Shown in pieces: positions 4,124 to 61,533 of a stretch of 64,000 nucleotides of DNA. Numbering within the stretch: position 1 is the stretch's first letter; each line of letters begins with the position of its first letter. The stretch comes from a virus (taxonomy: Duplodnaviria > Heunggongvirae > Uroviricota > Caudoviricetes), in the IMG/VR virus record IMGVR_UViG_3300012909_000001, positions 33,689 to 97,688 of that record, one strand, 5' to 3'. Position numbers and translations under genes: made by a program. The notes beneath the pieces were generated by a model that saw nothing but the letters and a program-made list of their open reading frames with translations, ran no database searches and was not told the origin of the DNA.

Positions 4124-4154
4124 CTATTCTAATTTTTTATTAGATGGCTTATCA

Positions 4155-5375: not shown

Positions 5376-5387
5376 AATTTCTTAATT

Positions 5388-32972: not shown

Positions 32973-33042
32973 CTGCTGTAGTGTAATTGGCAACATAATA
33001 CCCTGTCACGGTATAGTTTGGAGTTCGAATCTCCCAGTAGCT
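32973..33042 (+). tRNA. tRNA-Asp (anticodon GTC)
   Basis: Acceptor GCTGCTG/CAGTAGC with one G-U pair; anticodon arm ATACC-CTGTCAC-GGTAT; T-arm GGAG-TTCGAAT-CTCC. The D-arm is atypical. Confidence 0.55.
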
Positions 33043-33071
33043 GCAAACATAAAGGGTAGTAATAATTAGGT

Positions 33072-33144
33072 TACTTCTTAGCTCACTTGGTAGAGCAAAA
33101 ATTTTAGGTATTTTAGGTAGTGGGTTCAACTCCCACAGAGGCAC
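33072..33144 (+). tRNA. tRNA with anticodon TAG, which would read the Leu codon CUA; the body is class-I-like with a short variable loop, so the identity is uncertain
   Basis: Canonical D-arm TAGCTCACTTGGTAGAGC; anticodon arm AAAAT-TTTAGGT-ATTTT; T-arm GTGGG-TTCAACT-CCCAC. The acceptor stem has one A-C mismatch. Confidence 0.45.
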
Positions 33145-33186
33145 TTAGGTGTTAACACCTAATTAACTTTCTCCCTTTATTTTTAT

Positions 33187-33259
33187 GCCTGATTAACTCA
33201 GTTGGTAGAGTAATTCCCTTGTAAGGATTAAGTCATAGGTTCGAACCCTATATTAGGCT
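33187..33259 (+). tRNA. tRNA-Thr (anticodon TGT)
   Basis: Full cloverleaf traced base by base: acceptor GCCTGAT/ATTAGGC, D-arm ACTC-AGTTGGTA-GAGT, anticodon arm ATTCC-CTTGTAA-GGATT, T-arm ATAGG-TTCGAAC-CCTAT. Confidence 0.85.
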
Positions 33260-33322
33260 CAGCATAAGTTTCATTGACATATTGGTTTAAATCAGAGTTA
33301 AAGTTCTCATAAAAACTTAAAT

Positions 33323-33395
33323 AGTACTGTAGCTTAATGGATAAAGCCTCAGATTTCTAATCTGATTATTGTAGGTTCAAGTCCTATCAGTACTA
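33323..33395 (+). tRNA. tRNA-Arg (anticodon TCT)
   Basis: Acceptor AGTACTG/CAGTACT perfect; D-arm GCTT...AAGC; anticodon arm TCAGA-TTTCTAA-TCTGA; T-arm GTAGG-TTCAAGT-CCTAT. Confidence 0.85.
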
Positions 33396-33401
33396 CAATT
33401 T

Positions 33402-33474
33402 GGACAGATAGCACAATGGTTAATGCTGTGAGCTGTTAACTCATAAGGTCTAGGTTCGAGTCCTAGTCTGTCCG
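33402..33474 (+). tRNA. tRNA-Asn (anticodon GTT)
   Basis: Acceptor GGACAGA/TCTGTCC; anticodon arm GTGAG-CTGTTAA-CTCAT; T-arm CTAGG-TTCGAGT-CCTAG. Confidence 0.75.
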
Positions 33475-33485
33475 CAAATAGCAAT

Positions 33486-33507
33486 AGTAACGTAAGAGTT
33501 ACTTCGG
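33486..33507 (+). repeat. Inter-tRNA hairpin family, copy 1: AGTAAC-GTAAGA-GTTACT followed by TCGG
   Basis: Shares the motif AGTAA...TTACTTCG(G/T) with the copies at 33933, 34027 and 34515. It lies 12 nt after a tRNA 3' end. Confidence 0.5.
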
Positions 33508-33563
33508 AACAAATTTTTAGCTTGTAATTCAACAAATACTCTTACAATTTTCTTTGCTTTTTT

Positions 33564-33638
33564 GGTTTATTAGCACAGTCTGGTCAGTGCAACTCCCTCA
33601 TAAGGAGAAGGTCAGTGGTTCAAATCCATTATAAACCA
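33564..33638 (+). tRNA. tRNA-Met (anticodon CAT), first copy
   Basis: Acceptor GGTTTAT/ATAAACC; D-arm GCAC-AGTCTGGTCA-GTGC; anticodon loop CTCATAA; T-arm AGTGG-TTCAAAT-CCATT. Confidence 0.75.
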
Positions 33639-33711
33639 CAAATAGTATAACACTATCAACATTAAAACATATTATAGCTGAATGTCTGTAACGTTTTATA
33701 CTATTTCTTTT

Positions 33712-33784
33712 GCTTCCTTAACTCAGTGAGAAGAGTGTCTCCCTTACATGGAGAAAGTCCCAAGTTCGAATCTTGGAGGAAGTA
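33712..33784 (+). tRNA. tRNA-Val (anticodon TAC)
   Basis: Acceptor GCTTCCT/AGGAAGT; D-arm ACTC-AGTGAGAA-GAGT; anticodon arm TCTCC-CTTACAT-GGAGA; T-arm CCAAG-TTCGAAT-CTTGG. Confidence 0.85.
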
Positions 33785-33789
33785 CTAAT

Positions 33790-33860
33790 GCAGATTTCAT
33801 CTAATGGTAGGATAGTGCTCTCCAAAAGCATTCATGGAAGTTCGAACCTTTCAATCTGCG
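33790..33860 (+). tRNA. tRNA-Trp (anticodon CCA)
   Basis: Acceptor GCAGATT/AATCTGC perfect; anticodon arm GTGCT-CTCCAAA-AGCAT; T-arm GGAAG-TTCGAAC-CTTTC. Confidence 0.7.
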
Positions 33861-33892
33861 CAAAATGTTATAGTTCATTAAAAACTAAATAC

Positions 33893-34016
33893 GGGGAAGT
33901 TTAAAAAAACTTGACTTATATGCTTATTCTCCAGTAATGGTAGTTACAGTATAAGTTACTTCGGAAAACATTTTTATCATAAGAAAATCATGTTGGTTCA
34001 AATCCAACCTTCCCCA
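33893..34016 (+). ncRNA. tRNA-like RNA, 124 nt: 7 bp acceptor-type terminal stem GGGGAAG/CTTCCCC plus a canonical T-arm GTTGG-TTCAAAT-CCAAC, but with a roughly 50 nt non-canonical core. It could be an intron-containing tRNA or a Y-RNA/YrlA-like tRNA mimic
   Basis: Terminal stem, discriminator A and T-arm are seen directly. No canonical D-arm or anticodon arm was found. Hairpin copy 2 (33933-33964) lies inside it. Confidence 0.4.
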
Positions 34017-34026
34017 CAAAGACAGT

Positions 34027-34048
34027 AGTAAAGTATAACTTACTTCGT
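34027..34048 (+). repeat. Inter-tRNA hairpin family, copy 3: AGTAA-AGTATAAC-TTACT followed by TCGT, then an orphan T-arm-like hairpin ATTGG-TTCGAAT-CCAAT at 34055-34071
   Basis: Seen directly. Confidence 0.5.
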
Positions 34049-34208
34049 AATTTATTGGTTCGAATCCAATCACAGCCTTTGGCTATGTAGACAAACTGGT
34101 TAAGTCACTTTTCTTTAAAAAAAGCACAAACACTTTTCAGTTATACTAATTTCTCTGTCATTTTTATCAAGGTTTAAGAGGGCTGTACCTATAAACAGCC
34201 CATTATAA

Positions 34209-34282
34209 GGACCAGTAACTCAGTCTGGTAGAGTGTTCCCCTGAAGAGGGAATGGTCATAGGTTCAAATCCTATTTGGTCCA
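34209..34282 (+). tRNA. tRNA-Phe (anticodon GAA)
   Basis: Acceptor GGACCAG/TTGGTCC; D-arm ACTC-AGTCTGGTA-GAGT; anticodon arm TTCCC-CTGAAGA-GGGAA; T-arm ATAGG-TTCAAAT-CCTAT. Confidence 0.85.
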
Positions 34283-34342
34283 CTATTGTAGATTGTTACT
34301 AATTCATAGGACTGGAAAGTCACGTAAGCATAGAATTAGAAT

Positions 34343-34424
34343 GGAATATGAAAGTCATCTTGGATATGGCAGGCAGACTGTAAATCTGCTACGAAAGTGA
34401 GTGGTTCGAGTCCATCATATTCCA
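34343..34424 (+). tRNA. tRNA-Tyr (anticodon GTA), type II with a long variable arm
   Basis: Acceptor GGAATAT/ATATTCC perfect; anticodon arm GCAGA-CTGTAAA-TCTGC; roughly 11 nt variable arm; 82 nt in total. Confidence 0.7.
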
Positions 34425-34430
34425 CACATC

Positions 34431-34504
34431 TGTGGGTTGGTAGTAAATGGTTAACTCGCTGGGCTCATATCCCAGAGCTGAGGGTTCAAGTCCCTTGCCC
34501 GCAA
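34431..34504 (+). tRNA. tRNA with anticodon CAT, second copy; could be initiator Met, elongator Met or Ile2 (lysidine)
   Basis: Acceptor TGTGGGT/GCCCGCA with two G-U pairs; anticodon arm CTGGG-CTCATAT-CCCAG; T-arm GAGGG-TTCAAGT-CCCTT. Confidence 0.65.
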
Positions 34505-34514
34505 CTAAAAGAGT

Positions 34515-34536
34515 AGTAAGAGTTAAGTTACTTCGT
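34515..34536 (+). repeat. Inter-tRNA hairpin family, copy 4: AGTAA-GAGTTAAG-TTACT followed by TCGT
   Basis: Seen directly, 11 nt after the preceding tRNA. Confidence 0.5.
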
Positions 34537-34586
34537 TTACCATAAAATTAACTAAAAAATACTTAATTCATTTTCTCTCTTTAAAT

Positions 34587-34659
34587 CTGGTATTATATCA
34601 ATTGGTAGATTACGTGCTTTGGGAGCACGAGGCTGTAGGTTCAAGTCCTGCATACCAGA
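34587..34659 (+). tRNA. tRNA-Pro (anticodon TGG)
   Basis: Acceptor CTGGTAT/ATACCAG perfect; anticodon arm CGTGC-TTTGGGA-GCACG; T-arm GTAGG-TTCAAGT-CCTGC. Confidence 0.8.
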
Positions 34660-34790
34660 CAACACAGTTGGTCACACACTACAGTTCGTGATAGGGTTCC
34701 ATATCCTTATATACTGGTAAATTTTGTATTATTTTTGAATAAAGAAATTTTACAGGCTAACAAGTAGTATACTGCTTTTAGTAACAGATT

Positions 34791-34841
34791 GAGATTATTC
34801 TATTATCTTGTGTTAAGACTTAGATAAATCTCAATTTTTTT
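34791..34841 (+). terminator. Extended hairpin (GAGATT..TTATCT loop AGATAA..AATCTC) followed by A2T7; a terminator-like structure inside the tRNA array
   Basis: Seen directly. Confidence 0.45.
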
Positions 34842-34843
34842 AT

Positions 34844-34919
34844 TCCCTCGTTGCTTAGTCTGGCTCAAAGCACCACACTTTTAATGTGGGTATCAATGGT
34901 TCGAATCCATTCGAGGGAA
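34844..34919 (+). tRNA. tRNA-Lys (anticodon TTT)
   Basis: Acceptor TCCCTCG/CGAGGGA perfect; D-arm GCTT-AGTCTGGCTCA-AAGC; anticodon arm CCACA-CTTTTAA-TGTGG; T-arm AATGG-TTCGAAT-CCATT. Confidence 0.9.
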
Positions 34920-34984
34920 CAAGTGATGTAATTTTGTATGTTTTATTACATTGTGACCATTAGGTACACTTACAAACATATAAT

Positions 34985-35067
34985 GCAAGAGTGGCTTAAC
35001 AACGAATTGGTATAGTGGTAATACTTAGGATATTACAGCTTTGGGAGTTCGAGTCTCCCCTCTTGTA
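34985..35067 (+). tRNA. Atypical tRNA, 83 nt, with anticodon TAG and an unusually long region between the acceptor and the anticodon arm; identity uncertain
   Basis: Acceptor GCAAGAG/CTCTTGT; anticodon arm TAATA-CTTAGGA-TATTA perfect; T-arm GGGAG-TTCGAGT-CTCCC perfect. A 27 nt D-region could not be folded canonically. Confidence 0.4.
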
Positions 35068-35072
35068 CAAAT

Positions 35073-35146
35073 GGCTCGGTGGTGCAACTGGTAGACACAT
35101 AGAGCTTAAGCCTCTAAAAGTATGGGTTCGACTCCCTTTCGAGCTA
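35073..35146 (+). tRNA. tRNA with anticodon TAA (Leu, UUA) and a class-I-like short variable loop
   Basis: Acceptor GGCTCGG/TCGAGCT with terminal G-U pairs; anticodon arm TAGAG-CTTAAGC-CTCTA perfect; T-arm ATGGG-TTCGACT-CCCTT; discriminator A. Confidence 0.55.
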
Positions 35147-35161
35147 CTAAAATTATTTATT

Positions 35162-35227
35162 ATGGCTATATTTATTGGAATTGTTTTAGTAATCTGTATT
35201 GTTTGCATACTCTCAGGTGCAGAGTAA
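35162..35227 (+). CDS. Tiny hydrophobic peptide ORF, MAIFIGIVLVICIVCILSGAE, between tRNAs
   Basis: It is preceded by an AAATTATTTATTATG leader similar to those at 35321 and 35640. Confidence 0.3.
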   Translation: MAIFIGIVLVICIVCILSGAE

Positions 35228-35232
35228 ATTAT

Positions 35233-35318
35233 GGAAGGTATCCGGCAGGATGAGGAGCCTGTCTTGAAAACAGGTAGTGGCTAATTACCATTGATGAGTT
35301 CGAGTCTCTCACCTTCTT
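35233..35318 (+). tRNA. tRNA-Ser (anticodon TGA), type II
   Basis: Acceptor GGAAGGT/ACCTTCT; anticodon arm CCTGT-CTTGAAA-ACAGG perfect; roughly 20 nt variable arm. The T-stem is imperfect. Confidence 0.65.
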
Positions 35319-35332
35319 CTAAATTATTATTA

Positions 35333-35416
35333 TGATAAGATTATTAGTATTCTTTGTAGTTTTTACTGTTATTCTTATACTTGGTCACAAGTATTTGAAA
35401 TGGGATGGTGAATAAA
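35333..35416 (+). CDS. Tiny hydrophobic peptide ORF, MIRLLVFFVVFTVILILGHKYLKWDGE
   Basis: Preceded by AAATTATTATTATG. Confidence 0.3.
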
Positions 35417-35546
35417 AATTAGTCCTGTACCCTTGAATCCTATTAATTGCTAAGTGATGAACTTAGGATTATAACATGGAGTAGACCCGGATAAGTTCAG
35501 CAGGATAGGTATTGTTATAAAAGGGTTTAAAGACTTTACCATTTAC

Positions 35547-35631
35547 AGAAAGGTGCCAGAATGGTATTGGAGCAGATTGCTAATCTGTCGGAGCCTCAAA
35601 ACTTCTCAGGGTTCGAGTCCCTGTCTTTCTA
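35547..35631 (+). tRNA. tRNA-Ser (anticodon GCT), type II
   Basis: Acceptor AGAAAGG/TCTTTCT; D-arm CCA-GAATGGTAT-TGG; anticodon arm GCAGA-TTGCTAA-TCTGT; 18 nt variable arm; T-arm CAGGG-TTCGAGT-CCCTG. Confidence 0.7.
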
Positions 35632-35651
35632 CTTAGTTTTAAATTATTATT

Positions 35652-35828
35652 ATGAGCAGAACTATCAGAAAAGATGTTAATGACAAGCCTTACACAGAAG
35701 GTAGAACATCTAAAATAAGATATAGATGTCATTGTATTTATTGTGCAGGTCATGACAAGAATCAACTTGTTGAAAAAATAAGAAAAAAAGAATTAAATAA
35801 ACAATTAAAAGAATTGTCATGTGGATAG
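35652..35828 (+). CDS. Small Cys-containing protein ORF (58 aa), MSRTIRKDVNDKPYTEGRTSKIRYRCHCIYCAGHDKNQ..., between tRNAs
   Basis: Preceded by AAATTATTATTATG; it has a CHCIYC motif. A 28 aa hydrophobic ORF follows at 35819..35905. Confidence 0.3.
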   Translation: MSRTIRKDVNDKPYTEGRTSKIRYRCHCIYCAGHDKNQLVEKIRKKELNKQLKELSCG

Positions 35829-35911
35829 TATTTGTAATATTGCTAATTGGAGCAATTCTCTTCTGGGAACCAGGAGATGATAATGATTATCCACATTTTG
35901 GATAGTTAAAT

Positions 35912-45592: not shown

Positions 45593-46033
45593 ATGGCAAG
45601 AGAAGCAGTTCAAATTACAATTTCAGATTTAACATCTAAAGTTGAAGCTGGTTGGAAAAAACCAGCACTTGCAGAGCATTACGGATTACCTGTATCACAG
45701 GTAACAAGTGCTTTACAAGCAGCAGGACTTAGAATCAGAAAATTCCACCATCCTAAATTTATTTTGGTAGATGACACAGTAAATCCAATTACGGATGCAA
45801 CTCCATCTATGATGTCAGCACCAGAGGCAGAAATGACTCTTATGCAGGCTATTGCAGCTAACCATGCTGTTATGGCAGGTGAAGATGATATCAATGATGA
45901 GTTAGAACCAGAAACAGGAGATTGGGATTATGATGATTCAGAGTTCCCTTCAGATGAAGCTGAAGAACCAACTATTGTGCAGGAAACAATAGTACCAGTA
46001 GAAGCAGAATCAACAGAGGAAGCTACCTGGTAA
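45593..46033 (+). CDS. Hypothetical acidic protein with a C-terminal EEATW tail
   Basis: 146 aa with a DE-rich C-terminal half ending in STEEATW. Confidence 0.4.
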   Translation: MAREAVQITISDLTSKVEAGWKKPALAEHYGLPVSQVTSALQAAGLRIRKFHHPKFILVDDTVNPITDATPSMMSAPEAEMTLMQAIAANHAVMAGEDDINDELEPETGDWDYDDSEFPSDEAEEPTIVQETIVPVEAESTEEATW

Positions 46034-46062: not shown

Positions 46063-46785
46063 ATGAATTACGGATATCAAGATTCGAATGAAGTAGGTCC
46101 AGGTAAACAAGGTGGGAAGTATGGACTAAACACAGGGTTTGTAACTAAATTTGAGTACAATCCAAATGCAGGTAAAGACGGAGCACAACAAGATGCTATT
46201 GACTTAACTGTACAAGTGGGTGAAAAAGAATACAGAGACAGAATATTCCCTGTAAGCAAAGTATTTGCTAAAGGTGGTGGAGAAATCACTGATACAAATT
46301 CTCAGGATTACAAAGATGCATTCCAAAAAGAACAGTCATTGCTTAATGCAAAACTTTCTGATATTGTGAAAGCATTTGTATCTGAGGAAGATATCAAACA
46401 AGCTCTTGCTACTCCAATTAGCTCATTCGCAGATTATGCACAAATCTTACAAAGATTAGTACAATCTGTACCAAATTGGAATAAACAACCTGTAGATATA
46501 TTTCTACAATATCAGTTTACTCCATCAGGAGAAAACACAAGAACATTCTTGGAGTTACCTAAAAATGTTAAGCATGGTGCTTATATAACTAAGTCTCAAG
46601 GACCTGGTTTTACAGAAGAGAAAACTGATACACATGTAAGGTATGTAAGAGGAACAGAAGTTCACCCTCTGAAAAGAGGTGAATGGTTTGTTAAATCTGC
46701 ATTTACAATACCTGTTGTATTAGCTGATACTTCTTCAAGTACTCAGGACATGAATGCAGCTCCACAAGGAGAAGCAACCTGGTAA
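46063..46785 (+). CDS. Hypothetical protein, possibly ssDNA-binding, with a C-terminal GEATW tail
   Basis: 240 aa ending in PQGEATW. It shares the tail motif with the upstream gene. Confidence 0.4.
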   Translation: MNYGYQDSNEVGPGKQGGKYGLNTGFVTKFEYNPNAGKDGAQQDAIDLTVQVGEKEYRDRIFPVSKVFAKGGGEITDTNSQDYKDAFQKEQSLLNAKLSDIVKAFVSEEDIKQALATPISSFADYAQILQRLVQSVPNWNKQPVDIFLQYQFTPSGENTRTFLELPKNVKHGAYITKSQGPGFTEEKTDTHVRYVRGTEVHPLKRGEWFVKSAFTIPVVLADTSSSTQDMNAAPQGEATW

Positions 46786-46791
46786 TAATCT

Positions 46792-47835
46792 ATGTATGGT
46801 TATAAGGAATTTATACCTTTAACACCAGAAGAAATACTATGTAGAGTTTCAGAAGAAGACATATTTAGTATTATTATCAAAGAAGAAATTATTGAAGATA
46901 AGGGAGCTTTCTATAAGGCTCCCTATCGTAATGATGAAATAGCAGATTGTTATTTTACCAGATATGATGGTCACTTAAGATTTATAGACTTTGCAGATTA
47001 CCAAAGAGCTAAAACTTGCTTTGGCCTTCTGCAAAGAGCCTATAACATCTCCTACAGAGAAGCTATGGAACTTATCAACAATCATTTTAAGCTTGGCTTA
47101 GGTGACAACTTAGAGAAAACTAAAGAAGTTGTTATTGAAAATGACTGTGTAGAAGAAGAAAAAATAGTAAAATCCTTTAAGGAAAGGGTCATCACCTATC
47201 TGCCAAGACAATTTGACTACAAAGATAAACAATTTTGGGATAAGTATGGTATAACAAAGCAAAATTTAATTGATGACAAGGTAGTACCTGTTGAAATTTA
47301 CAGGTCTACAAACAGAAAGGGAGAGACCTTCACAATAAGATGCTTTGATATATGCTATGCATATACTGATTTTGAAAATAACAAGGTAAAGATATACAGA
47401 CCTCATGCTATTACAAAAGAGGCTAAATGGTTTACAAACTGTAGCCAGAATGATGTAGGTTCTTTACAACATTTACCACAAGAAGGAGAACTTCTAATAA
47501 TATCTAAGTCTTACAAAGATTGCAGAGTACTAAGAAATATGGGATTAAATTCCTGCTGGTTTCAAAATGAAGGTATGATACCTGGTACTGCAATAATTGA
47601 GGATTTATCCAAAAGATTCAAAAAGATATTAGTTTGGTTTGACAATGACAGTGCGGGTATGACAAACAGCAGGATAGTAATTCAGTATATAAACTCAATA
47701 CATCCAGATAAAGCAAAGAACATAATGCTACCCCCAAGATTATTAACAGAACAAATAAAAGACCCTTCTGATTTTTACGCAAGTAAAGGTAAAGAAGAAT
47801 TAATTAAATTTTTAACAGTAAAGAAATTGCTATGA
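46792..47835 (+). CDS. DnaG-like primase (Toprim domain)
   Basis: 347 aa. A Toprim DxD-type motif ILVWFDNDSAGMT is present and the protein sits in the replication module. Confidence 0.5.
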   Translation: MYGYKEFIPLTPEEILCRVSEEDIFSIIIKEEIIEDKGAFYKAPYRNDEIADCYFTRYDGHLRFIDFADYQRAKTCFGLLQRAYNISYREAMELINNHFKLGLGDNLEKTKEVVIENDCVEEEKIVKSFKERVITYLPRQFDYKDKQFWDKYGITKQNLIDDKVVPVEIYRSTNRKGETFTIRCFDICYAYTDFENNKVKIYRPHAITKEAKWFTNCSQNDVGSLQHLPQEGELLIISKSYKDCRVLRNMGLNSCWFQNEGMIPGTAIIEDLSKRFKKILVWFDNDSAGMTNSRIVIQYINSIHPDKAKNIMLPPRLLTEQIKDPSDFYASKGKEELIKFLTVKKLL

Positions 47836-48506
47836 ATCCTACATCAAAATTCCATGAATCCTGGAAACCTTTATTAAGTTACCTGGAAACTGACCCAATG
47901 ATGAAAAAACTAAGTCAGGAAATCCTACCTAATACTAAATACTATCCTGAAAAAGAAGACATTTTTAATGTATTTCAAATGCCTGTAGAGGACATTAAGG
48001 TAGTTATATTGGGACAAGACCCTTATCCAAATGAGGGTCAAGCTATTGGCTATGCATTTGCTGTGTCTGAAGACACACCTAAACCAGCTTCACTCAAGAT
48101 AATAGAGAAAGAAATAGGCTCTGTCTTAGACAGAACATTATCACATTGGACAGGGCAAGGTGTATTTCTATTAAATACAGCACTTACAGTCAAGGTAAAA
48201 GAAGCAGGAAGTCATCTCCAGTATTGGGATGGTTTCATCAAACAAGTAATCAGTTTTATCTCACTCAAAAACAGAGTAGTATGGTTACTATGGGGAAAGA
48301 AAGCTCAGGCTTTTACTCCTTACATTACCAGAAGAAGTGAATTCAAAACTCTCGCGGAAATAGCGGATTTTAATATAATCTTAAACGCAGCACACCCTGC
48401 TGCTGAGGCATATTCAGGAGGAAAAGCAGGCTTCTATGGATGTAATCACTTTAATCTTGTAAATGAGATATTACAACAACAACAAAAATCCACAATAGTG
48501 TGGTAA
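47832..48506 (+). CDS. ung: Uracil-DNA glycosylase, family 1-like
   Basis: The water-activating motif VVILGQDPYP is present (compare GQDPYH). The C-terminal His-containing motif is AAHPAAEAYS. Confidence 0.7.
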   Translation: MNPTSKFHESWKPLLSYLETDPMMKKLSQEILPNTKYYPEKEDIFNVFQMPVEDIKVVILGQDPYPNEGQAIGYAFAVSEDTPKPASLKIIEKEIGSVLDRTLSHWTGQGVFLLNTALTVKVKEAGSHLQYWDGFIKQVISFISLKNRVVWLLWGKKAQAFTPYITRRSEFKTLAEIADFNIILNAAHPAAEAYSGGKAGFYGCNHFNLVNEILQQQQKSTIVW

Positions 48507-48894: not shown

Positions 48895-49335
48895 ATGAGA
48901 AAGATTAAAATCTATTCAACAGTAGGTGTGTCAGGAAGTATTGACACAAATGTTAGAACTTTAGGAGAGCTTAAACCTCTTTTAAGACAAAGAGAGATTG
49001 ACTATAGCGGAATGAAGCTATTAGTTGGTGAAACAAGAAATGAACTTAATGTTGATGATGCAGTATTGCCAGAAGGAGACTTCAAACTTTACTTAATGCC
49101 TCAGAAAACTAAGTCAGGTAATGGAGCTAAGTTCGCAAGACTTAATGAACTTATCGGAGAGTTTCAGGAAATTGTTGAGGGATTAGAGGAGGATTTTGAT
49201 AATCAAGATTCTTCTTATTCAGCACCTAAAGCTTCTTATACTTCTTACGAAGATGAGCAAGCTTTAGCTGACATCAGAGCTTTGGCTGCTGGTGGAAGTG
49301 GTTCTGCTCCAAAACAAAGAGACCCTTGGGGATAA
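48895..49335 (+). CDS. Candidate ubiquitin-like (beta-grasp) protein with a C-terminal Gly-Gly followed by a 12 aa tail
   Basis: 146 aa. The N-terminal 75 aa (KIKIYSTVGV...VLPEGDFKLYLMP) look MoaD/ThiS/Ubl-like. The sequence ...LAAGG-SGSAPKQRDPWG ends like a pro-Ubl. It is the first gene of the Ubl-E2-JAB-E1 cluster. Inferred, not demonstrated. Confidence 0.35.
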   Translation: MRKIKIYSTVGVSGSIDTNVRTLGELKPLLRQREIDYSGMKLLVGETRNELNVDDAVLPEGDFKLYLMPQKTKSGNGAKFARLNELIGEFQEIVEGLEEDFDNQDSSYSAPKASYTSYEDEQALADIRALAAGGSGSAPKQRDPWG

Positions 49336-49395
49336 TGATTAACAAAAAGGGGGGCTATAACTTAGCTCCCCTTTTTATATTAAATTACTAAAATT

Positions 49396-50577
49396 ATGGA
49401 TTTTAGAAAATTAGAGGAACAAATTAAGTTAAGTCCTAATATTCGTGATTTCAGATGGGTCAAAAAACAGTATGATAAAGGAAGGCTAACTCTAAGAGGA
49501 CAGCCTATATCAGCACCAGCTTTTGAACAATTCAGAAAGTCAGTAAAGACTATTGAAGAAATATATGAAGGACAATGGGATTTTGATGTAGTTGTAAGAT
49601 TATCAGCCTTACCAAAAGGTAAGAGAAAAATAACTATTGATATACAAGGTGTAGTAATACTATTACCTGAAGTCATTATCAAGAATTCCAAAAAGAAAAG
49701 CCATAAGATTGTAGACTTATACATTAATATAATGTTAGGTATAAGAAACAACAGGTTATTTATAGAAGGTACTTATGGAGGAAGAGGACAACTTAGTTAT
49801 GCTGAGTGGAGTTCAGCTTATTTTCATAGTCATCTTCCAACAAGAAACCCAGAAGCAGGAGCAACACCACCATTTTGGGGTAACTTCTGTACAGGTTCAG
49901 GTCACATTAATGAGGCAATTGCTGAGATTAACTCAGATGGATTTACTATCCAGAAATTTACTTCTTATCTTCTAAATTTATATACTCTTGTAAGTTGGGA
50001 ATCACTTGAAGGTGGTCCTCATCATCACATAGAGAATATTATACCAAGAAGTGGAAGTGCCAGAGAACATACTGTAAATGACATGGTTAGCAGAGATTTA
50101 ATGAATGTGATATTAAATTATCACAGAAATAATAATCTTGTACCTAAGATTGATTTTACAATAGAGAACAACCAGTATGTAATTAAAGACAATGAAACCT
50201 TCGAGGAATTCTTAAAATCAGCACCACTCTCAGATGTGCAAAAATCAAGATTCCTTTGTATGAGGGACGAAACAGGAAGATATTATTCCTATGGTTCAGG
50301 AACATCTACGCATGTTGAACCACCAAGATTCACTGGAACATTTATATTCCAGGGAGAAAAGAAAAAACTTGAAGTATATGGTACACCAGGAGACAGAGGT
50401 ACAGCCATTGAATATTTCGTACACCCAAGAATTAAAGAATTTATTATTAAAGAATTACAATATGACAGCAACAAAAAAATCATTAGAAAGAGTACAATTG
50501 ACAGATACAAAAGTGAAGTTGATAATGCCACAGAACATACTCCAGTTAATCCAGTTCCTGTGCTCAAGGATAGCTAA
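49396..50577 (+). CDS. Hypothetical protein, candidate E2-like component
   Basis: 393 aa. The segment FHSHLPTRNPEAGATPPFWGNFCTGSG is loosely UBC-like (His...Cys). Assigned mainly from its position between the Ubl-like gene and the JAB gene. Confidence 0.3.
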   Translation: MDFRKLEEQIKLSPNIRDFRWVKKQYDKGRLTLRGQPISAPAFEQFRKSVKTIEEIYEGQWDFDVVVRLSALPKGKRKITIDIQGVVILLPEVIIKNSKKKSHKIVDLYINIMLGIRNNRLFIEGTYGGRGQLSYAEWSSAYFHSHLPTRNPEAGATPPFWGNFCTGSGHINEAIAEINSDGFTIQKFTSYLLNLYTLVSWESLEGGPHHHIENIIPRSGSAREHTVNDMVSRDLMNVILNYHRNNNLVPKIDFTIENNQYVIKDNETFEEFLKSAPLSDVQKSRFLCMRDETGRYYSYGSGTSTHVEPPRFTGTFIFQGEKKKLEVYGTPGDRGTAIEYFVHPRIKEFIIKELQYDSNKKIIRKSTIDRYKSEVDNATEHTPVNPVPVLKDS

Positions 50578-50638
50578 AGTAGAGTGGTCAGGAGTACTAT
50601 TTTATAGTGTACAGGGAGACATTACAAATCCTTCAGAA

Positions 50639-51721
50639 ATGGTATTAACCATAGAGGATATACTACCTATGAATAAAGGTACAGCAGCTTATACAGAATA
50701 CTCTTTTGATGAGAGAGTAATTGACTATATGATGGAGAATGAGACAATGGAGAAAGGCTGGAAAATGGGCCATATTCACTCTCATAATACTATGGGAGTA
50801 TTCTTCTCAGGTACAGATTGGTCTGAACTTGAAGATAATGCACCAAACCATAACTTCTATCTTTCACTTATTGTGAATAACTTTATGGAGTTCTGTGCTA
50901 AAGTATGCTTTATAGCAGAATCTCAGGACAGTAAAGAATTTGCTTTCTATGCTAAGAATTCAGATGGAGAGAAATACCTTTTCAAATCTGAAGAGTATAA
51001 AGTAGAGGAAAAGAAACTTGTAGTTTATGACTGTGCTATAGATTCTCCCAGGTCAGAAATATCTGTTCCCGAAGAATTTATTCTTAAGGTGGATAAAGTC
51101 ATTGAAGATGCAGATAAGGTGGCAGCAGCTGTTACAAAAATAAGTAATACTAACTATGCCGGATTCGGTACTGGTAAAGTATATGGAAGTAATGGTCAAC
51201 AAGTAGGTACAAGGACTCCCAGTAACCCCTCCACATGGGGAGAACACGGAGATAGTGCAGCATGGGATGACTATGACTACCCATATCAGGGGAAAAAAGA
51301 AGAAGAAGACCAGCAGGAATTCAACTGGGAACCAAAGGAGCAGAAGAAGGTAAGTACAAGTATTTACACTGATTTCAATGAAGAAGTAGAGCATTTTGCT
51401 ATGTTTGTTCTGAATACAGGTAATAACTTAAGAGAATTTGCTGATATTGAAGATATCATTAAGCATTATCTGAAGTTTAATCTGAAGCCTAAAATGTTAG
51501 CATCAAGTATCTTAGAGAAATATGCATCATTGTATGACAATTTCTTTGATAGTATGCCAAACAGAGAAAATGCTGATGTATTTACTTTTGTAACTGAAGG
51601 TGTAATCAATGAGTATGAAAATACTTTCCATCTTACACAAAGTAAAAGTGTACAGGAAATGTTAAGTCCTGTAATAGGAAGTTTAAAATCAATGTTAGAA
51701 AAATTCAAAGTAGCTAAGTAA
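50639..51721 (+). CDS. JAB/MPN (JAMM) metalloprotease domain protein; start set at the first ATG after the upstream stop
   Basis: JAMM motif E...HSHNTMGVFFSGTD (HxHx7Sx2D; compare Rpn11 HSHPGFGCWLSGVD) preceded by a conserved Glu. It has a charged C-terminal extension. Confidence 0.65.
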   Translation: MVLTIEDILPMNKGTAAYTEYSFDERVIDYMMENETMEKGWKMGHIHSHNTMGVFFSGTDWSELEDNAPNHNFYLSLIVNNFMEFCAKVCFIAESQDSKEFAFYAKNSDGEKYLFKSEEYKVEEKKLVVYDCAIDSPRSEISVPEEFILKVDKVIEDADKVAAAVTKISNTNYAGFGTGKVYGSNGQQVGTRTPSNPSTWGEHGDSAAWDDYDYPYQGKKEEEDQQEFNWEPKEQKKVSTSIYTDFNEEVEHFAMFVLNTGNNLREFADIEDIIKHYLKFNLKPKMLASSILEKYASLYDNFFDSMPNRENADVFTFVTEGVINEYENTFHLTQSKSVQEMLSPVIGSLKSMLEKFKVAK

Positions 51722-52440
51722 TGAATACAACACAATCATCAAGATTTAAAGATGCACCCTGGTTTCCTAAAGAAGAAACACATGTAATTGTAGGTGGTGC
51801 AGGTGGTATTGGTTCATGGCTTACTATGATGCTTGCAAGAGCCGGATTTATGCCTATTGTATATGACTTTGATACTATTGAAGAGCATAATATGGGAGGA
51901 CAATTATTTCCTAAAAGACTTATAGGTAAAACTAAAGTTGCTGCTCTTAAAGAGATAGTACAGGATTTTACAGATACTGTCATAGATATTCAGAATGAGA
52001 AGTACACTACAGAGAGTCCAACACATCATTATGTTTTCTCTGCATTTGATAATATGCAGGCAAGAAAGGATATGTTTGCTAATTGGAAAATTTATGTTAA
52101 AGATTGGCAAAACAGTTTGACTGAAGCTCCTTTAGCAGAAGGTGAAACTGAAATTGTACCAGTATTCATTGATGGTAGACTTACTATGGAACAATTACAT
52201 ATATTTTGTGTAACACCAGACAGAATTGAAGAGTATGAAAAACATCTCTTTGATGATTCTGAAGTTCCGGATGCACCCTGTACTCTTAAACAGACATCAC
52301 ACTCAGCTGCTATGATTGCAGCACATATGGTAGCATTCTTCACAAACCACTTTGCTAATAATCAAATTGGAGAAGATGACAGAGCACTACCATTTTCATG
52401 GGAATATTTTATTCCTATTAACTATCTAAATGAACAATAA
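51721..52440 (+). CDS. E1-like (ThiF/MoeB-family) adenylyltransferase
   Basis: Rossmann motif VIVGGAGGIGS followed by YDFDTIEEHNMGGQ (compare ThiF DFDvVelsNLqRQ). The start codon overlaps the JAB stop. Confidence 0.6.
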   Translation: MNTTQSSRFKDAPWFPKEETHVIVGGAGGIGSWLTMMLARAGFMPIVYDFDTIEEHNMGGQLFPKRLIGKTKVAALKEIVQDFTDTVIDIQNEKYTTESPTHHYVFSAFDNMQARKDMFANWKIYVKDWQNSLTEAPLAEGETEIVPVFIDGRLTMEQLHIFCVTPDRIEEYEKHLFDDSEVPDAPCTLKQTSHSAAMIAAHMVAFFTNHFANNQIGEDDRALPFSWEYFIPINYLNEQ

Positions 52441-52442
52441 TT

Positions 52443-53108
52443 ATGGCAACAAACATAGTTTCATTTGTGAGACCCCCAGTTAGCAGTTCAAATGCTAATA
52501 ATTTCAAAACAAGGAATATAGGGACTTCAGATTGTAATATGTTTATACCATTCTTCGCTGTATTTCAACACAGTTTAATTACTTTTAAAGACAGAGAAGA
52601 TGTACAAGTTTTAGAATATTCTCTACCTATAGATGTCCCTGAAATAAATGGATTTGAATATAGATATGACAGGATGATACATCATCTGATAAATACTATG
52701 ACTCCAAAGAGATTCAAATTTTCAGTTGCAACAGTACCTCAGCATGTAAATGTTGTAAGAGGTGCTATATATGGTCCAAATGAGAATCTTCTTATTTGTC
52801 TTGGTATAAATGTACAATATCTTTTTAGTAAGCCTATTGAAGAAATAGTAGCTAATCCGGATTATTCACAGTTTTGTATATTTGTGAGTAACGAATTAGA
52901 TGAAAACCCTATCTATAAGAATCTGAAGAAGAAACTTCATATGGATTACTTTCCTGAAGCAGCAGTGCAAGGTATAGATATTGTCTACACAACAAAAATT
53001 GCAGACAGATTGTTCAGAAACAATTTTGTCCAACCAAAGTTTAAAAATATTTCCGAAAGAGCTAAATATCTAAAAGAAGAAGTTCCTAAAAGCCTATTAA
53101 TAGACTAA
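52443..53108 (+). CDS. Hypothetical protein
   Basis: 221 aa ORF immediately downstream of the E1-like gene. Confidence 0.4.
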   Translation: MATNIVSFVRPPVSSSNANNFKTRNIGTSDCNMFIPFFAVFQHSLITFKDREDVQVLEYSLPIDVPEINGFEYRYDRMIHHLINTMTPKRFKFSVATVPQHVNVVRGAIYGPNENLLICLGINVQYLFSKPIEEIVANPDYSQFCIFVSNELDENPIYKNLKKKLHMDYFPEAAVQGIDIVYTTKIADRLFRNNFVQPKFKNISERAKYLKEEVPKSLLID

Positions 53109-53109
53109 T

Positions 53110-53523
53110 ATGGATATTCAAATAAAAAAAAGAAGCATTGGAAAAACAAACAAAAGAAATGGCTCAGAAGCTGAAAGGTTCTATGCCAACATATTCAGAG
53201 AAATAGGATTTAGTCATTGTAAAACATCAAGACTTGGTTCTAAACTTCATGATGATGCTGGTATAGACTTAATATTCTTACCTTTTAATGTGCAGGTTAA
53301 ACATGGAAAACAAGCAGGAATGAATCCAGCTAGGGAATTACAATATATGCAGAACAGAATGTTTGAGTTATTTCCTCAAAGTTCTCCTGAGCACTTATTC
53401 CCTAAAATAGTTATCCATAAAAAAGCTGTTGGTACAGGAAAAAGAAGAACTCCTTATGATGAAATAGTCACTATGACATTTGAGGATTTTTTAAAGATTA
53501 TTCAGAAGATTGAGAAATGGTAA
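53110..53523 (+). CDS. Holliday junction resolvase, Hjc/archaeal-type PD-(D/E)xK nuclease
   Basis: The region GSEAERFYANIFREIGF...RLGSKLHDDAGIDLIFL...VQVKHG matches the Hjc pattern (GSxxER...GF...GSK..DLI...K). Confidence 0.55.
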   Translation: MDIQIKKRSIGKTNKRNGSEAERFYANIFREIGFSHCKTSRLGSKLHDDAGIDLIFLPFNVQVKHGKQAGMNPARELQYMQNRMFELFPQSSPEHLFPKIVIHKKAVGTGKRRTPYDEIVTMTFEDFLKIIQKIEKW

Positions 53524-53615: not shown

Positions 53616-54248
53616 ATGCAAATACAAAGTGGGAAGTTGTATAAGAATAGGACCTGGAAGTATATCTATCCATGCCTTAAGTACTATGGACCAGAATTGA
53701 ACAAACATTTAGGTACTTTCTTTAAATTAGGAGTAGGAATTAATGACTATAATATGGATATCAAAGGTGAGAGAAATCACATCTTTATACTTGTAGACAC
53801 TAATCTACCCTTTTCCTCAGAAGACCAAATAAAAGAGTATAAGTTGAAATTCTCTAAGTTCCTTGATTGGCTGACCTACCAACATTACTATGTAGCTGAT
53901 TATGTATATGAGGACTTTACAGGTAAACACATGATTGTGTTACAATTGCCTTATAAGCATGATGCATCTTTCCTGAGCTTTGTTCAGGGAAAATACAGTG
54001 ATATGTATGGAACAAAGGAAATAAATGATTACTTTAAATTTGTCACACTGACTGATAAAGCTATTGAAAAAACAAGGAATGATGAAATAAGGGAAGTCAG
54101 GATGGTTCTGACAAAAGACAAGAAATATTTGGGTAAGTTTACTGATATGGTAAACACTGAATTCAAGACTAAGTTAAAACCAGATGATTTTGCAGATGCA
54201 GAATTTGATTTTCCACCAGTCCTTAAAGAAGAAATTTTTAACTATTAA
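53616..54248 (+). CDS. Hypothetical protein
   Basis: 210 aa ORF. Confidence 0.4.
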   Translation: MQIQSGKLYKNRTWKYIYPCLKYYGPELNKHLGTFFKLGVGINDYNMDIKGERNHIFILVDTNLPFSSEDQIKEYKLKFSKFLDWLTYQHYYVADYVYEDFTGKHMIVLQLPYKHDASFLSFVQGKYSDMYGTKEINDYFKFVTLTDKAIEKTRNDEIREVRMVLTKDKKYLGKFTDMVNTEFKTKLKPDDFADAEFDFPPVLKEEIFNY

Positions 54249-54258
54249 TAAACAAAAT

Positions 54259-55131
54259 ATGGTAGAGAATCCATCACCTACAGACATGCTAAGGGGAGAA
54301 CCTGAAGCAGAACCTGAAATAGACTTATCAAAACACAAAGGATTAAGATTTAATGAAGGTAAACTAAGGTTTGATTTAGTTCATTCCTATGCTCATGAGC
54401 AAATGGTAAGAGTACTTACAAAAGGAGCCATAAAGTATTCTGATAGAAATTGGGAGAAAGGTATGGCATGGAGCAATATTATAGCTTCACTTAAAAGGCA
54501 TTTAAATGCTATTGAGAGAGGTGAAGATTTTGACCCAGAAACTGGTGAGCTACATGCAGCACATGTTGCATGTAATGCTCACTTTTTAACAGCATATTAT
54601 AAGATTTATCCACAAGGAGATGACAGACCACATGACTACTTATCAAGACCTAAAATTGGACTTGATATAGATGAAGTTATATGTAGCTGGACTGATTCCT
54701 GGTGTGAGAAGTTTGGTTATGATATGCCTGAGAATTGGAATTTTAGCTATTCAAATGAAGACCATTTCAAAAGCTTTACAACTGAAGAATTGGATGAATT
54801 CTATTTGAATATTCCAGCTAAAATATCTCCCAGAGATATTCCATTTGAACCTCATTGTTATATTACAAGCAGAAGTGTACCTGTAGAGCTTACCAAGAAA
54901 TGGTTACATAAACATGGTTTTCCAACTATGCCAGTGTACTCAGTAGGATTTGAACAATCCAAAGTGGAAGTAGCTAAAACATCAGGTATTGATATATTTG
55001 TTGATGACAGATATGAAAACTTCGTGGAATTAAATAATGCAGGAATTTGTACATTCCTATATGATGCACCTCATAATCAGAGATATGATGTAGGATACAA
55101 AAGGATTAAAACTTTAAAGGAATTATTATGA
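54259..55131 (+). CDS. Two-domain nucleotide-metabolism protein: an N-terminal domain of unknown function plus a C-terminal HAD-like 5'(3')-deoxyribonucleotidase-type domain
   Basis: The HAD motif I is IGLDIDEVI (hhhDxDxV). Start trimmed to the ATG at 54259. Confidence 0.4.
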   Translation: MVENPSPTDMLRGEPEAEPEIDLSKHKGLRFNEGKLRFDLVHSYAHEQMVRVLTKGAIKYSDRNWEKGMAWSNIIASLKRHLNAIERGEDFDPETGELHAAHVACNAHFLTAYYKIYPQGDDRPHDYLSRPKIGLDIDEVICSWTDSWCEKFGYDMPENWNFSYSNEDHFKSFTTEELDEFYLNIPAKISPRDIPFEPHCYITSRSVPVELTKKWLHKHGFPTMPVYSVGFEQSKVEVAKTSGIDIFVDDRYENFVELNNAGICTFLYDAPHNQRYDVGYKRIKTLKELL

Positions 55132-60380: not shown

Positions 60381-60712
60381 CAGCAGAAGAATTTTCAAAA
60401 AATTTTACTACAGGAAAAAGTGAGGAAACTACTGGAGAGTATATACAAAGTATGTTAACTAAGTTTGCTCAATATCATGTAGAGAAAGCTTTAGAGAATG
60501 TAAAGTTAAAAATACAACTATCTTTTATACCTTATGATGAAGAATCTTGGAATCAAAAATCTATAGAAAGAAAAGATATTCTTGACTTCTATGATGATGG
60601 AGAAGATGATACAGATTTTCAATATGAACAGTTAAGAAATAGAGATGGTTTCATTATTGAAGCAGATGAAGAATCAATTATTAATGCATACCCACTAACA
60701 AACATAAAATGA
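60377..60712 (+). CDS. Hypothetical protein
   Basis: 111 aa ORF. Confidence 0.35.
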   Translation: MTAEEFSKNFTTGKSEETTGEYIQSMLTKFAQYHVEKALENVKLKIQLSFIPYDEESWNQKSIERKDILDFYDDGEDDTDFQYEQLRNRDGFIIEADEESIINAYPLTNIK

Positions 60713-61533
60713 TAATAGATTTAAAAAGAGGTTTTGGAGATTTTGAAGAGTATAAACTTTCTAAATTTCCTGATAATTCAATTAAATTTGAATTAAAAGT
60801 AGACATTGAATCATGGGAAGAAGTTCTCATTCTAACAACATTCAGGTCTTCAGATGACATACTGGCTTTAGGATTGGTAGCAAATACTTTGAGAAAAGTT
60901 TGTCCTTGTCCTATATATTGTAATATATCTTATATGATGTATCAGCAAGATGACAGACAGTTTAAAGATACTGAGAGTTTTGGTCTTAAATTTATTTGTG
61001 ACTTACTTAATATCTATCCAATTGATAGTTATGAAATATTTCATCCACACTCAGATAAAGTAGAGTTTATAAATTCCTTAAGAATTCTAGATAACACACA
61101 ATTTTTGGAATGGTCTATAGCAGATATACATGCTGCTAAGAAAGACTTGGTTCCTGTAGTATGGGTAATACCAGATTCAGGTGCATTTAAGACTCAGTTT
61201 AAACAAATTGAGAAATTACATTATCATGAATTTATTACTTGTATGAAATCAAGAAATTCTGGTACAGGTGAAATAACTACTGTAGTTAACACAGATGATT
61301 TACAAGGTAAAGATTGTTTCATTGTAGATGATATTTGTCTTGGAGGAAGAACTTTTATTCAAATAGCTCAAGAGCTTAAGAAAAAGAATTGTGGTAAACT
61401 ATATCTTATAGTATCACATGGAGTACTTAATCATGGTTATATAGATTTGATAAAATATTTTGAATGTATATATACTACAGATTCTATTTGTACTTTACCT
61501 GAAACTGATAAACTCAAAATCTATGAGTTATAA
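60709..61533 (+). CDS. Phosphoribosyltransferase-fold protein, ribose-phosphate pyrophosphokinase (Prs)-like
   Basis: PRPP-binding motif CFIVDDICLGGRTF (compare VDDmidTGGT) and VWVIPDSGAFKTQ (compare the Prs PDaGg). Confidence 0.5.
   Translation: MIIDLKRGFGDFEEYKLSKFPDNSIKFELKVDIESWEEVLILTTFRSSDDILALGLVANTLRKVCPCPIYCNISYMMYQQDDRQFKDTESFGLKFICDLLNIYPIDSYEIFHPHSDKVEFINSLRILDNTQFLEWSIADIHAAKKDLVPVVWVIPDSGAFKTQFKQIEKLHYHEFITCMKSRNSGTGEITTVVNTDDLQGKDCFIVDDICLGGRTFIQIAQELKKKNCGKLYLIVSHGVLNHGYIDLIKYFECIYTTDSICTLPETDKLKIYEL

Follow-up and report, generated by a model that had tools for sequence, protein, structure and literature searches.

A candidate ubiquitin-like conjugation cassette in the replication module of crAss-like phages

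We analysed a 64,000-nucleotide stretch of viral DNA (the window; positions 33,689 to 97,688 of IMG/VR record IMGVR_UViG_3300012909_000001), which carries at 48895-52440 four adjacent genes for a candidate pathway of ubiquitin-like protein (Ubl) conjugation. The window comes from a crAss-like phage, because its open reading frame (ORF) at 7198-8661 on the minus strand matches Pfam Crass_capsid at 1.5e-142. An initial annotation, made by a model from the letters of the window, had described the four genes as encoding, in this order, a Ubl, possibly an E2, a JAB/JAMM peptidase and an E1/ThiF-like protein. All four ORFs are present as claimed in the ORF list of the window, and a gene call made independently on the source contig, a metagenome assembly of 100,452 nt (European Nucleotide Archive, ENA), gave matching products of 102, 146, 393 and 398 amino acids. 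The genes abut or overlap one another, and their main features are as follows.

48895..49335, plus strand: Ubl precursor gene, 146 amino acids, with a ubiquitin-fold domain and a variable C-terminal extension (ORF list, homologues, AlphaFold2 (AF2) model and Foldseek)
48895..49119, plus strand: Ubl domain proper, residues 1-75, with predicted cleavage and activation after Gly75 (alignment)
49396..50577, plus strand: E2-like gene, 393 amino acids, with a predicted UBC/UEV/RWD-like core at about residues 40-205 and an extra C-terminal region
49819..49896, plus strand: predicted E2 active-site stretch, Y142-x-H-S145-H146...F-C165-x-G167 (conservation and model)
50525..51721, plus strand: JAMM/JAB gene, 398 amino acids, with a JAB domain at about 1-190, a variable linker and a C-terminal helical domain (P0283 start and ENA gene call)
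50582-50584, plus strand: catalytic Glu20 of the predicted JAMM site (alignment)
50777..50818, plus strand: JAMM zinc motif, H85-x-H87-x7-S95-x2-D98 (alignment)
51721..52440, plus strand: minimal single-domain E1 gene, 239 amino acids (Pfam ThiF and PDB profile search)
52279..52281, plus strand: invariant Cys187 (P-C-T-L-K-Q-T), candidate E1 thioester site (alignment)

The product of the last of the four genes is a member of the E1 superfamily, an assignment that we regard as firm. It scored 62.5 bits against Pfam ThiF (PF00899; curated cut-off 28.1 bits, E = 4.2e-17), and its ThiF/E1 Rossmann motif, reported in the initial annotation, was found again by translation (GGAGGIGS, 51793-51816). 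A profile of 12 E1 homologues returned 64 E1-family chains from the PDB, among them UBA5 (the best match, 5.7e-14), MccB, PaaA, ThiF (1.1e-12), UBA1/UBA6, NAE, MoeB and Cap2 (6.6e-9). The Pfam and PDB matches thus bear out the proposed adenylation protein, the sequence leaving its subfamily undecided. Invariant in the 12 sequences are G26, G28, S32, D49, D51, N57, Q61, K72, D110, R115 and D151-G-R; the set of ATP/Mg residues is complete, and FDxMxAR is found in 68 of 69 IMG/VR sequences. The protein consists of a single domain, with no CxxC zinc motif, rhodanese domain or second adenylation-like domain.

Cys187 is the only invariant Cys among the 12 E1 sequences, the one from a jumbo phage included. 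It is present in at least 67 of the 69 IMG/VR E1s, of which a narrow pattern scored 58 and nine were added by eye from the printed sequences. The variable stretch just before it we take to be the crossover loop, near the end of which the catalytic Cys of UBA5 sits. Presumably, C184 of ThiF and a Cys of Atg7 lie at the corresponding place. Another residue considered as the catalytic Cys, Cys163 (IFCVTPD), was rejected, being A, N or F in other lineages.

The gene preceding the E1 was initially annotated as starting at 50639. The start was corrected to 50525, as in P0283 and the ENA gene call (398 amino acids), because with the shorter version the strand bearing the conserved catalytic Glu (VEWSG) would be lost. 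The JAB gene, so extended, overlaps the E2-like gene by 53 nucleotides; its overlap with the E1 gene is 1 nucleotide (TAATG), and not one codon as had been stated. The JAMM motif HSHNTMGVFFSGTD (HxHx7Sx2D) was confirmed by translation at 50777-50818. Taken alone such a motif is weak evidence; across all six frames of the 64 kb the pattern H.H.{7}S..D turns up just twice. The residues E20, H85, H87, S95 and D98, however, are invariant or nearly so across 28 JAB homologues (of 969 detected), and the motif is kept in all 11 loci compared from divergent lineages and in 68 of 70 distinct IMG/VR homologues. The PADLOC JAB model matched 19 of the 28 family members (best E 1.5e-6), and Pfam Prok-JAB gave 14 bits for the window protein against a cut-off of 25, with weak matches in 17 of the 28. 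The complete invariant signature and the PADLOC profile both argue for the JAMM peptidase that had been proposed. Searched with the family profile, PDB sequences gave no meaningful match, and a profile comparison with lambda protein K, which revealed no similarity, was uninformative. In the alignment of 28 homologues the JAB domain is followed by a variable linker and then by a conserved helical C-terminal domain. Shuffling of this domain with the N-terminal extension of gp76 of Bacteroides phage crAss001 was considered and rejected, as the two have no similarity.

The first gene of the cassette, whose product has 757 detectable homologues, encodes a protein with a predicted ubiquitin fold. 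The AF2 model shows a beta-beta-alpha-beta-beta-beta arrangement at residues 2-69 (predicted local distance difference test score, pLDDT, of about 89), followed by a flexible segment at 70-76 and then by helices. Foldseek matched the model to ubiquitin, SUMO, NEDD8 and UBL domains with probability 1.0 and a target-normalized template modelling score, TM(target), of 0.6-0.7 over 76-80 columns, with ThiS and MoaD absent among the 50 matches listed. The beta-grasp-like N-terminus noted from the sequence is therefore upheld by both the predicted fold and its structural matches.

Residues 1-75 of the Ubl precursor are highly conserved, and everything beyond Gly75 is variable. Across 31 homologues P69, K71, T72, K73, S74 and G75 are invariant (a P-x-K-T-K-S-G end), and K-S-G is also invariant in Flavobacterium phage FpV4, crAss001 gp79 and bajarodcaudo virus, whose proteins have 225-289 amino acids; one lineage, that of locus L012 from a metagenome-assembled genome (MAG), has a KIKGG end. 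The number of residues after the terminal Gly ranges from 1 to 252 across IMG/VR loci and is 71 in the window. The protein stops one residue past the Gly in L065, L089, L090 and L096 and four past it in L091, the shortest IMG/VR proteins reading ...KTKSGK, ...KVKSGI and ...KMAAGI up to the stop codon. The JAB gene is kept whatever the length of the tail, even where only 1-4 residues trail the Gly.

The initial annotation had assigned processing to an AAGG sequence followed by a tail of 12 amino acids. Although the protein does end in this way, AAGG was rejected as the processing site, because it is not conserved even among close homologues, whereas Gly75, at the end of the fold, is invariant. 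The notion of a pro-Ubl was thus right, and the site misplaced. Gly75 is the likely site of processing and activation, given its invariance from FpV4 to crAss001, the GG of one lineage and the retention of JAB with tails of 1-4 residues, all of which point to it as the functional C-terminus and as the counterpart of Gly76 of ubiquitin.

Beyond the K-S-G, several other lineages share a motif, roughly SY.E....IK......fGKNyT...t..L..LL., which is absent from the window Ubl protein (L001 4709-5578, L006 4289-4966, L007 4568-5329, L008 7342-7869 and L010 6-737). Seen by eye, it is reminiscent of a DNA-binding element of the helix-extended-helix or SAP-like kind.

Clustering at 50% identity gives 3063 representatives for the family of the second gene. 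The product of this gene has no match in Pfam, NCBIfam or PADLOC, UQ_con and Prok-E2 profiles included, and the family profile found no meaningful sequence match in the PDB. In the AF2 model (pLDDT 82) a helix is followed by an antiparallel meander of four strands, then by a long loop holding the S-H pair and Cys165, and then by helices, with about 170 more residues after this core, which is predicted to adopt a UBC/UEV/RWD-like fold. Foldseek against the PDB gave nothing significant for the model, the weak best matches being double-RWD kinetochore proteins. The loosely E2-like His...Cys segment remarked upon earlier was found by translation (YFHSHL...FCTGSG, 49819-49896), and in the model the S-H/Cys165 stretch falls in the loop that connects strand 4 to the following helix. 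Conserved across the family are D62, N97, G128, R130, E137, Y142, S145-H146, F164-C165-x-G167 and E202-S203..G206.P208. Of 162 family representatives, 97-99% keep the active-site stretch. The FpV4, crAss001 and MAG lineages all have S-H, C-x-G and E202-S203..G..P without exception, and among distinct IMG/VR sequences the signatures occur in 66 of 67 and 67 of 67. Cys165 may be the structural equivalent of the catalytic Cys of E2 enzymes.

The four genes are strictly linked. A scan of IMG/VR yielded at least 522 contigs and 79 retained loci with enough upstream sequence, in 75 of which the order Ubl, E2, JAB, E1 is complete; three of the remainder have no detectable Ubl and one has neither Ubl nor E2. 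No fused cassette ORFs were found in 80 phage loci. The order recurs beside primase, uracil-DNA glycosylase (UDG) or DnaB genes in FpV4 and bajarodcaudo virus, as gp79, gp78, gp77 ('metalloprotease') and gp76 ('ThiF') in crAss001, and in close IMG/VR relatives, five MAG loci and one NCBI contig; it holds at all cultured-phage and MAG loci examined. With tblastn the E1 was found in 79 phage records, which comprise FpV phages, Steigviridae-type crAss phages and four jumbo phages. Among 185,579 species genomes there were only 5 cassette loci, all in MAGs with the same phage neighbourhood, indicating a phage module and not a bacterial defence island. Gene identities, conservation and strict linkage are in this way established by observation, and none of the outcomes that the initial annotation had named as refuting it was seen.

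The surroundings of the cassette include genes for a DnaB-like helicase, an AAA ATPase, a primase, a UDG and a RusA-like nuclease, and further for a MazZ-like/NT5C protein, ribonucleotide reductase and a family A DNA polymerase. These matches agree with the earlier placement of the cassette inside a phage replication and nucleotide-metabolism module. In GenBank and PHROGs the cassette genes are labelled hypothetical, 'metalloprotease', 'thiamine biosynthesis protein' and, once, 'E1 enzyme family protein'; the PHROGs are 15560 (Ubl), 15310 (E2-like) and 16107/21448 (JAB). We found no prior description of a phage-encoded cassette of this kind in the open-access literature on crAss-like, Flavobacterium and jumbo phages or in the Bil, Bub and Iyer 2006 papers.

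Two other loci deserve mention. In the jumbo phage locus L014 (Xanthomonas phage PhiXhv-16, PV764603.1, 229 kb; 1754-5630) a related E1 of 227 amino acids (27% identity, Pfam ThiF 4.8e-21) is preceded by an 892-amino-acid Cys-rich protein with 'IHPHM...GSLCLGSF', like the HPN...C motif of E2s, and this in turn by a 140-amino-acid protein ending in '...KASGG'; no JAB was seen, and the candidate Ubl and E2 have no Pfam support. The locus may hold a second set of phage Ubl, E2 and E1, independent of the first, in which the GG terminus is ready-made. In a Bacilli MAG (L009, JBMNLZ010000002.1, 5028-7300) a CRISPR array (repeat GTTTCAATCCTTGTTTTAATGGATCTTGCTCTCGAAT, at least 32 copies, period about 72-73 nt) runs into a 5'-truncated phage Ubl gene, followed by E2, JAB, E1 and UDG genes. 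This is probably an assembly join via a phage-matching spacer, which would link the phage lineage to that host.

Two further features accompany the cassette.

49344..49376, plus strand: terminator-like hairpin, a 14-bp stem and T-run, between the Ubl and E2 genes (folding)
52443..53108, plus strand: fifth gene, 221 amino acids, immediately 3' of the E1 gene, a possible accessory protein or target

The hairpin has a minimum free energy of -21.8 kcal/mol (z -4.9), and only 7 comparable plus-strand hairpins, this one included, occur in the 64 kb. A strong hairpin of unrelated sequence lies directly 3' of the Ubl gene at 12 of 12 loci examined individually and at most of the 75 IMG/VR loci. It may terminate or attenuate transcription, so that Ubl transcripts rise relative to those of the enzymes. 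A sigma-70 promoter scan, ill suited to Bacteroidota, gave a background level only, and TAnnTTTG motifs gave no obvious promoter between the Ubl and E2 genes.

In the position of the fifth gene every locus has an ORF of 208-362 amino acids that starts at the E1 stop codon. Homologues of the window protein are clearly recognizable after the E1 in FpV4-like loci and L008, and hhalign of the FpV4-like group against the crAss001 type indicated weak homology (probability 54%, E 1.3e-4). No catalytic signature was seen in the protein. A BubE-like serine protease was considered and rejected, as the protein has no Ser/His dyad and no Pfam match, DUF6527 included.

On balance we favour the view that the cassette specifies a self-contained, phage-encoded pathway of ubiquitin-like protein conjugation, co-located and presumably co-expressed with the replication genes; both the conjugation and its targets we infer. 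In such a cascade a 75-residue Ubl would be handled by a minimal E1 and by an E2 of a new family, with a JAMM peptidase to process the precursor. As to whether Steigviridae-type crAss-like phages, crAss001 included, and their aquatic and Flavobacterium relatives run a complete Ubl cascade of their own that covalently tags host or viral proteins, we see the case as evenly balanced.

In the pathway that we propose, the JAMM peptidase would cut the 146-amino-acid precursor directly after Gly75 (between KTKSG and N), releasing the 75-residue modifier and a variable C-terminal fragment. There is precedent for such processing: BilC and BubC make their cut exactly behind a conserved Gly, and in the long precursor BubAB the C-terminal part is functional. 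The E1 presumably forms a homodimer, as UBA5, ThiF and BubCD do; it would adenylate Gly75 and probably load the modifier onto Cys187, from where it would be handed to Cys165 of the E2-like protein, Ser145-His146 standing in for the canonical HPN. The cassette, like Bil, is without an E3 gene, and target choice would therefore fall to the large non-UBC part of the E2-like protein, possibly together with the fifth gene, the Ubl being joined to target lysines. The JAMM peptidase could also undo the modification, and the hairpin would hold Ubl mRNA above enzyme mRNA. Our best guess for the role of the pathway is modification of host or phage proteins in early-middle infection, for takeover, replication control or counter-defence.

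Several points weigh against conjugation. No target and no E3 were found. Peptide-modifying E1s (MccB, PaaA) and those of sulfur carriers (ThiF, MoeB) match the E1 profile about as well as conjugating ones do. The proposed equivalence of Cys187 to UBA5 Cys250, and that of Cys165 to the E2 catalytic Cys, is one of position only, and the invariant S-H...C...E-S residues could instead form a metal site.

One alternative is that activation occurs but that no protein is conjugated: the E1 would adenylate the Gly75 carboxylate so that the Ubl, or a small product, is passed to a non-protein acceptor or the C-terminus is modified in the style of MccB and PaaA, or JAB processing alone would matter, as proposed for lambda I and K, and the UBC-like protein would be a non-catalytic UEV/RWD-type adaptor or a metal-binding enzyme. 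MccB and PaaA are indeed among the best PDB matches of the E1 profile, the weak best Foldseek matches of the E2-like model are double-RWD proteins, and S-H, C and E-S could bind metal. We consider this reading unlikely, because a near-universal Cys in both the E2-like protein and the E1 fits a thioester relay, all four genes are kept together in 75 of 79 loci, and the substrate is a full ubiquitin-fold protein and no short peptide. UEV and RWD domains, moreover, characteristically have no such Cys. A phage Ubl and JAB pair without E1 and E2 does have a precedent (Iyer 2006). The same study described operons of JAB, Ubl and E1 for sulfur metabolism, and the cassette could by analogy serve a sulfur-carrier pathway, in which JAB would trim a ThiS/MoaD/CysO-type carrier, in the way that Mec+ trims CysO, and the E1 would adenylate it for thiocarboxylation, providing sulfur for a thio-modified nucleoside, a tRNA base or a cofactor. 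The phage, with its 24 tRNAs and nucleotide-metabolism genes, might have uses for it; GenBank labels the E1 as ThiF, the PDB profile search places ThiF and MoeB at about 1e-12 to 1e-9, and the best NCBIfam matches are ThiF models. The NCBIfam score, however, is far under the cut-off (54.8 against 159 bits), no curated ThiF or MoeB equivalog being reached, and the E1 has neither the CxxC motif nor a rhodanese domain. The conserved block contains no sulfurtransferase or synthase partner, its neighbours being primase, UDG and the RusA-like protein and the scan beyond it covering part of the window, and the pathway has no place for a strictly linked UBC-like-fold protein with an invariant Cys. As the top 50 structural matches to the Ubl model also hold ubiquitin, SUMO and NEDD8 but no ThiS or MoaD, a sulfur carrier appears to us very unlikely.

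Alternatively, the cassette might serve counter-defence only, jamming the Cap2/Cap3 priming of host Type II CBASS (cyclic oligonucleotide-based antiphage signalling system), or Bil or Bub, with JAB stripping conjugates and the Ubl, E1 and E2 acting as decoys. All known bacterial relatives of such systems are tied to anti-phage immunity, the gene location suggests expression ahead of virion assembly, the E1 matches the PADLOC Cap2 (E1-E2) models at 3e-9, and the JAB family matches the PADLOC JAB model (Cap3-type). For deconjugation, however, a lone JAB would suffice, and that the phages strictly retain an E1, an E2-like protein and a dedicated Ubl whose invariant Gly can be activated speaks for a conjugation chemistry of their own; nor are the phage proteins close homologues of Cap2, Cap3 or Bil, the matches being sub-threshold or absent. 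We hold this explanation to be quite improbable.

Ubl conjugation in prokaryotes has so far been described as bacterial anti-phage defence (Bil, Bub and Cap2/3 of CBASS). A conjugating cassette would, if confirmed, be the first virus-encoded E1-E2-Ubl-deubiquitinase pathway in prokaryotic viruses and a phage-side mirror of Bil, Bub and CBASS conjugation in bacterial immunity, and would mean that protein tagging is a tool of bacterial viruses too, just as viruses of eukaryotes manipulate ubiquitin. The cassette lies within the replication module of phages whose lineage includes cultured gut crAss-like phages; crAss001, DAC15 and the FpV phages grow on cultured hosts, which makes the proposal directly testable. 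Three large families without a function (the Ubl, E2-like and JAB PHROGs) would gain a testable role, the widespread annotation 'thiamine biosynthesis protein ThiF' would be corrected, and the minimal E1/E2 pair would be useful for studies of the evolution of the ubiquitin system.

The remainder of the window has a number of features of its own. Its G+C content is 29-36%, and its genes are arranged in a minus-strand block at about 1-18 kb and a plus-strand block from about 20 kb on. An array of 24 tRNA genes at 32971-38289 covers all 20 amino acids and contains a putative amber-suppressor tRNA (anticodon CTA, 37721-37797); the cassette genes should be unaffected by recoding, because the stops of the Ubl, E2-like, JAB, E1 and fifth genes read as TAA. 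About 2 kb upstream of the array lies a gene (28996-30693) for a 565-amino-acid protein with Ro60/TROVE (Pfam 4.2e-8) and vWA (5.5e-5) domains, and no Y RNA was found above Rfam thresholds. In the protein encoded at 54184-55131 the N-terminal domain is a dATP/dGTP diphosphohydrolase of the MazZ type (PF18909, 3.4e-30), and NT5C is matched weakly, which may hint at manipulation of the deoxynucleoside triphosphate pool or at non-canonical bases, and a phosphoribosyl pyrophosphate-synthetase-like gene is found at 60709-61533.

We also noted recurrent C-terminal ends. Four small ORFs that flank the DNA polymerase gene (38978-39250, 41117-41467, 41464-41790 and 41787-42074) share a ...(P)NGLF C-terminal motif, which resembles a clamp- or replisome-docking peptide. 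Five replication-module proteins, encoded at 45593-46033, 46063-46785, 47832-48506, 48895-49335 (the Ubl precursor) and 53110-53523, have a Trp in their last three residues (...EEATW, ...GEATW, ...TIVW, ...DPWG and ...IEKW, respectively), and homologues of the Ubl precursor likewise end in W, WD or WS. An enrichment of C-terminal Trp in the module was considered and set aside, as 5 of 61 genes of the plus-strand block is not significant (P = 0.11).

We compared the cassette with known systems. The tail-assembly protein I of lambda and T1 has a Ubl domain with a conserved terminal Gly and a C-terminal part, and the JAB protein K is predicted to cut there (Iyer 2006). The phage cassette shares with this pair a phage Ubl domain with a terminal Gly, a C-terminal extension and a JAB partner; I and K, however, belong to a tail-assembly module and have no E1 or E2. 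With Type II CBASS it has in common an E1 adenylation core, related to that of Cap2 by both the PADLOC and the PDB matches, and a JAB as its partner; of the cassette, the E1 core alone matched the Cap2 models. In Cap2 an E2 is fused to the E1, whereas the phage genes are separate, and CBASS conjugates a CD-NTase and has no beta-grasp Ubl, whereas the phage block has no cyclase or effector gene.

The UFM1 pathway (UBA5-UFC1) likewise uses a minimal E1 without a separate Cys domain, and UBA5 was the best PDB match, albeit at low sequence identity. UFM1, like the proposed phage Ubl, is made as a precursor and trimmed to expose a Gly. Its trimming, however, is carried out by cysteine proteases and not by a JAMM peptidase, and the UFM1 pathway needs an E3 complex.

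The initial annotation had likened the cassette to bacterial Bil and 6E-type operons. The gene order does match that of BilA-D and of the unfused form of Type I Bub, but the architecture of the E1, the Cys chemistry and the lack of family matches make the cassette an analogue of these systems and not a member. As in BilABCD (Types I and II), four separate genes stand in the order Ubl, E2, JAB, E1; in the Bil Ubl the residues behind a universally conserved Gly are not conserved and are removed by JAB, and, in the absence of an E3 gene, the Bil E2 is thought to choose the targets. The Bil E1, however, has an IAD-AAD-CYS architecture, whereas that of the phage is a single 239-amino-acid domain with its Cys beside the adenylation core; the extensions of Bil Ubls have at most 9 residues, compared with 1-252 in the phages and 71 in the window; and the Bil E2 has a conserved His after the Cys, compared with S-H before it. 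Bil is, moreover, a bacterial defence system, and the phage cassette is encoded by a virus. The cassette proteins had no Bil match in NCBIfam or PADLOC, libraries that may not hold Bil models.

Type I Bub (6E.1/DUF6527) has the same domain order, Ubl-E2 and JAB-E1 followed by a fifth gene. Its JAB frees a functional C-terminal part by cutting a long Ubl precursor immediately behind a conserved Gly, and its E1 is minimal and resembles UBA5 and ThiF. In contrast to the fused BubAB and BubCD, the phage genes are unfused in 80 loci; the Bub E1 and E2 are without Cys and form Ser/Tyr oxyesters, whereas Cys187 and Cys165 of the phage proteins are invariant; and the phage fifth gene has neither the Ser-His dyad nor a DUF6527 match. 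The cassette, whose E2, Ubl and JAB families match no curated profile, would represent a distinct phage-borne variant, which would work like Bil, Bub and CBASS and is a member of none of them.

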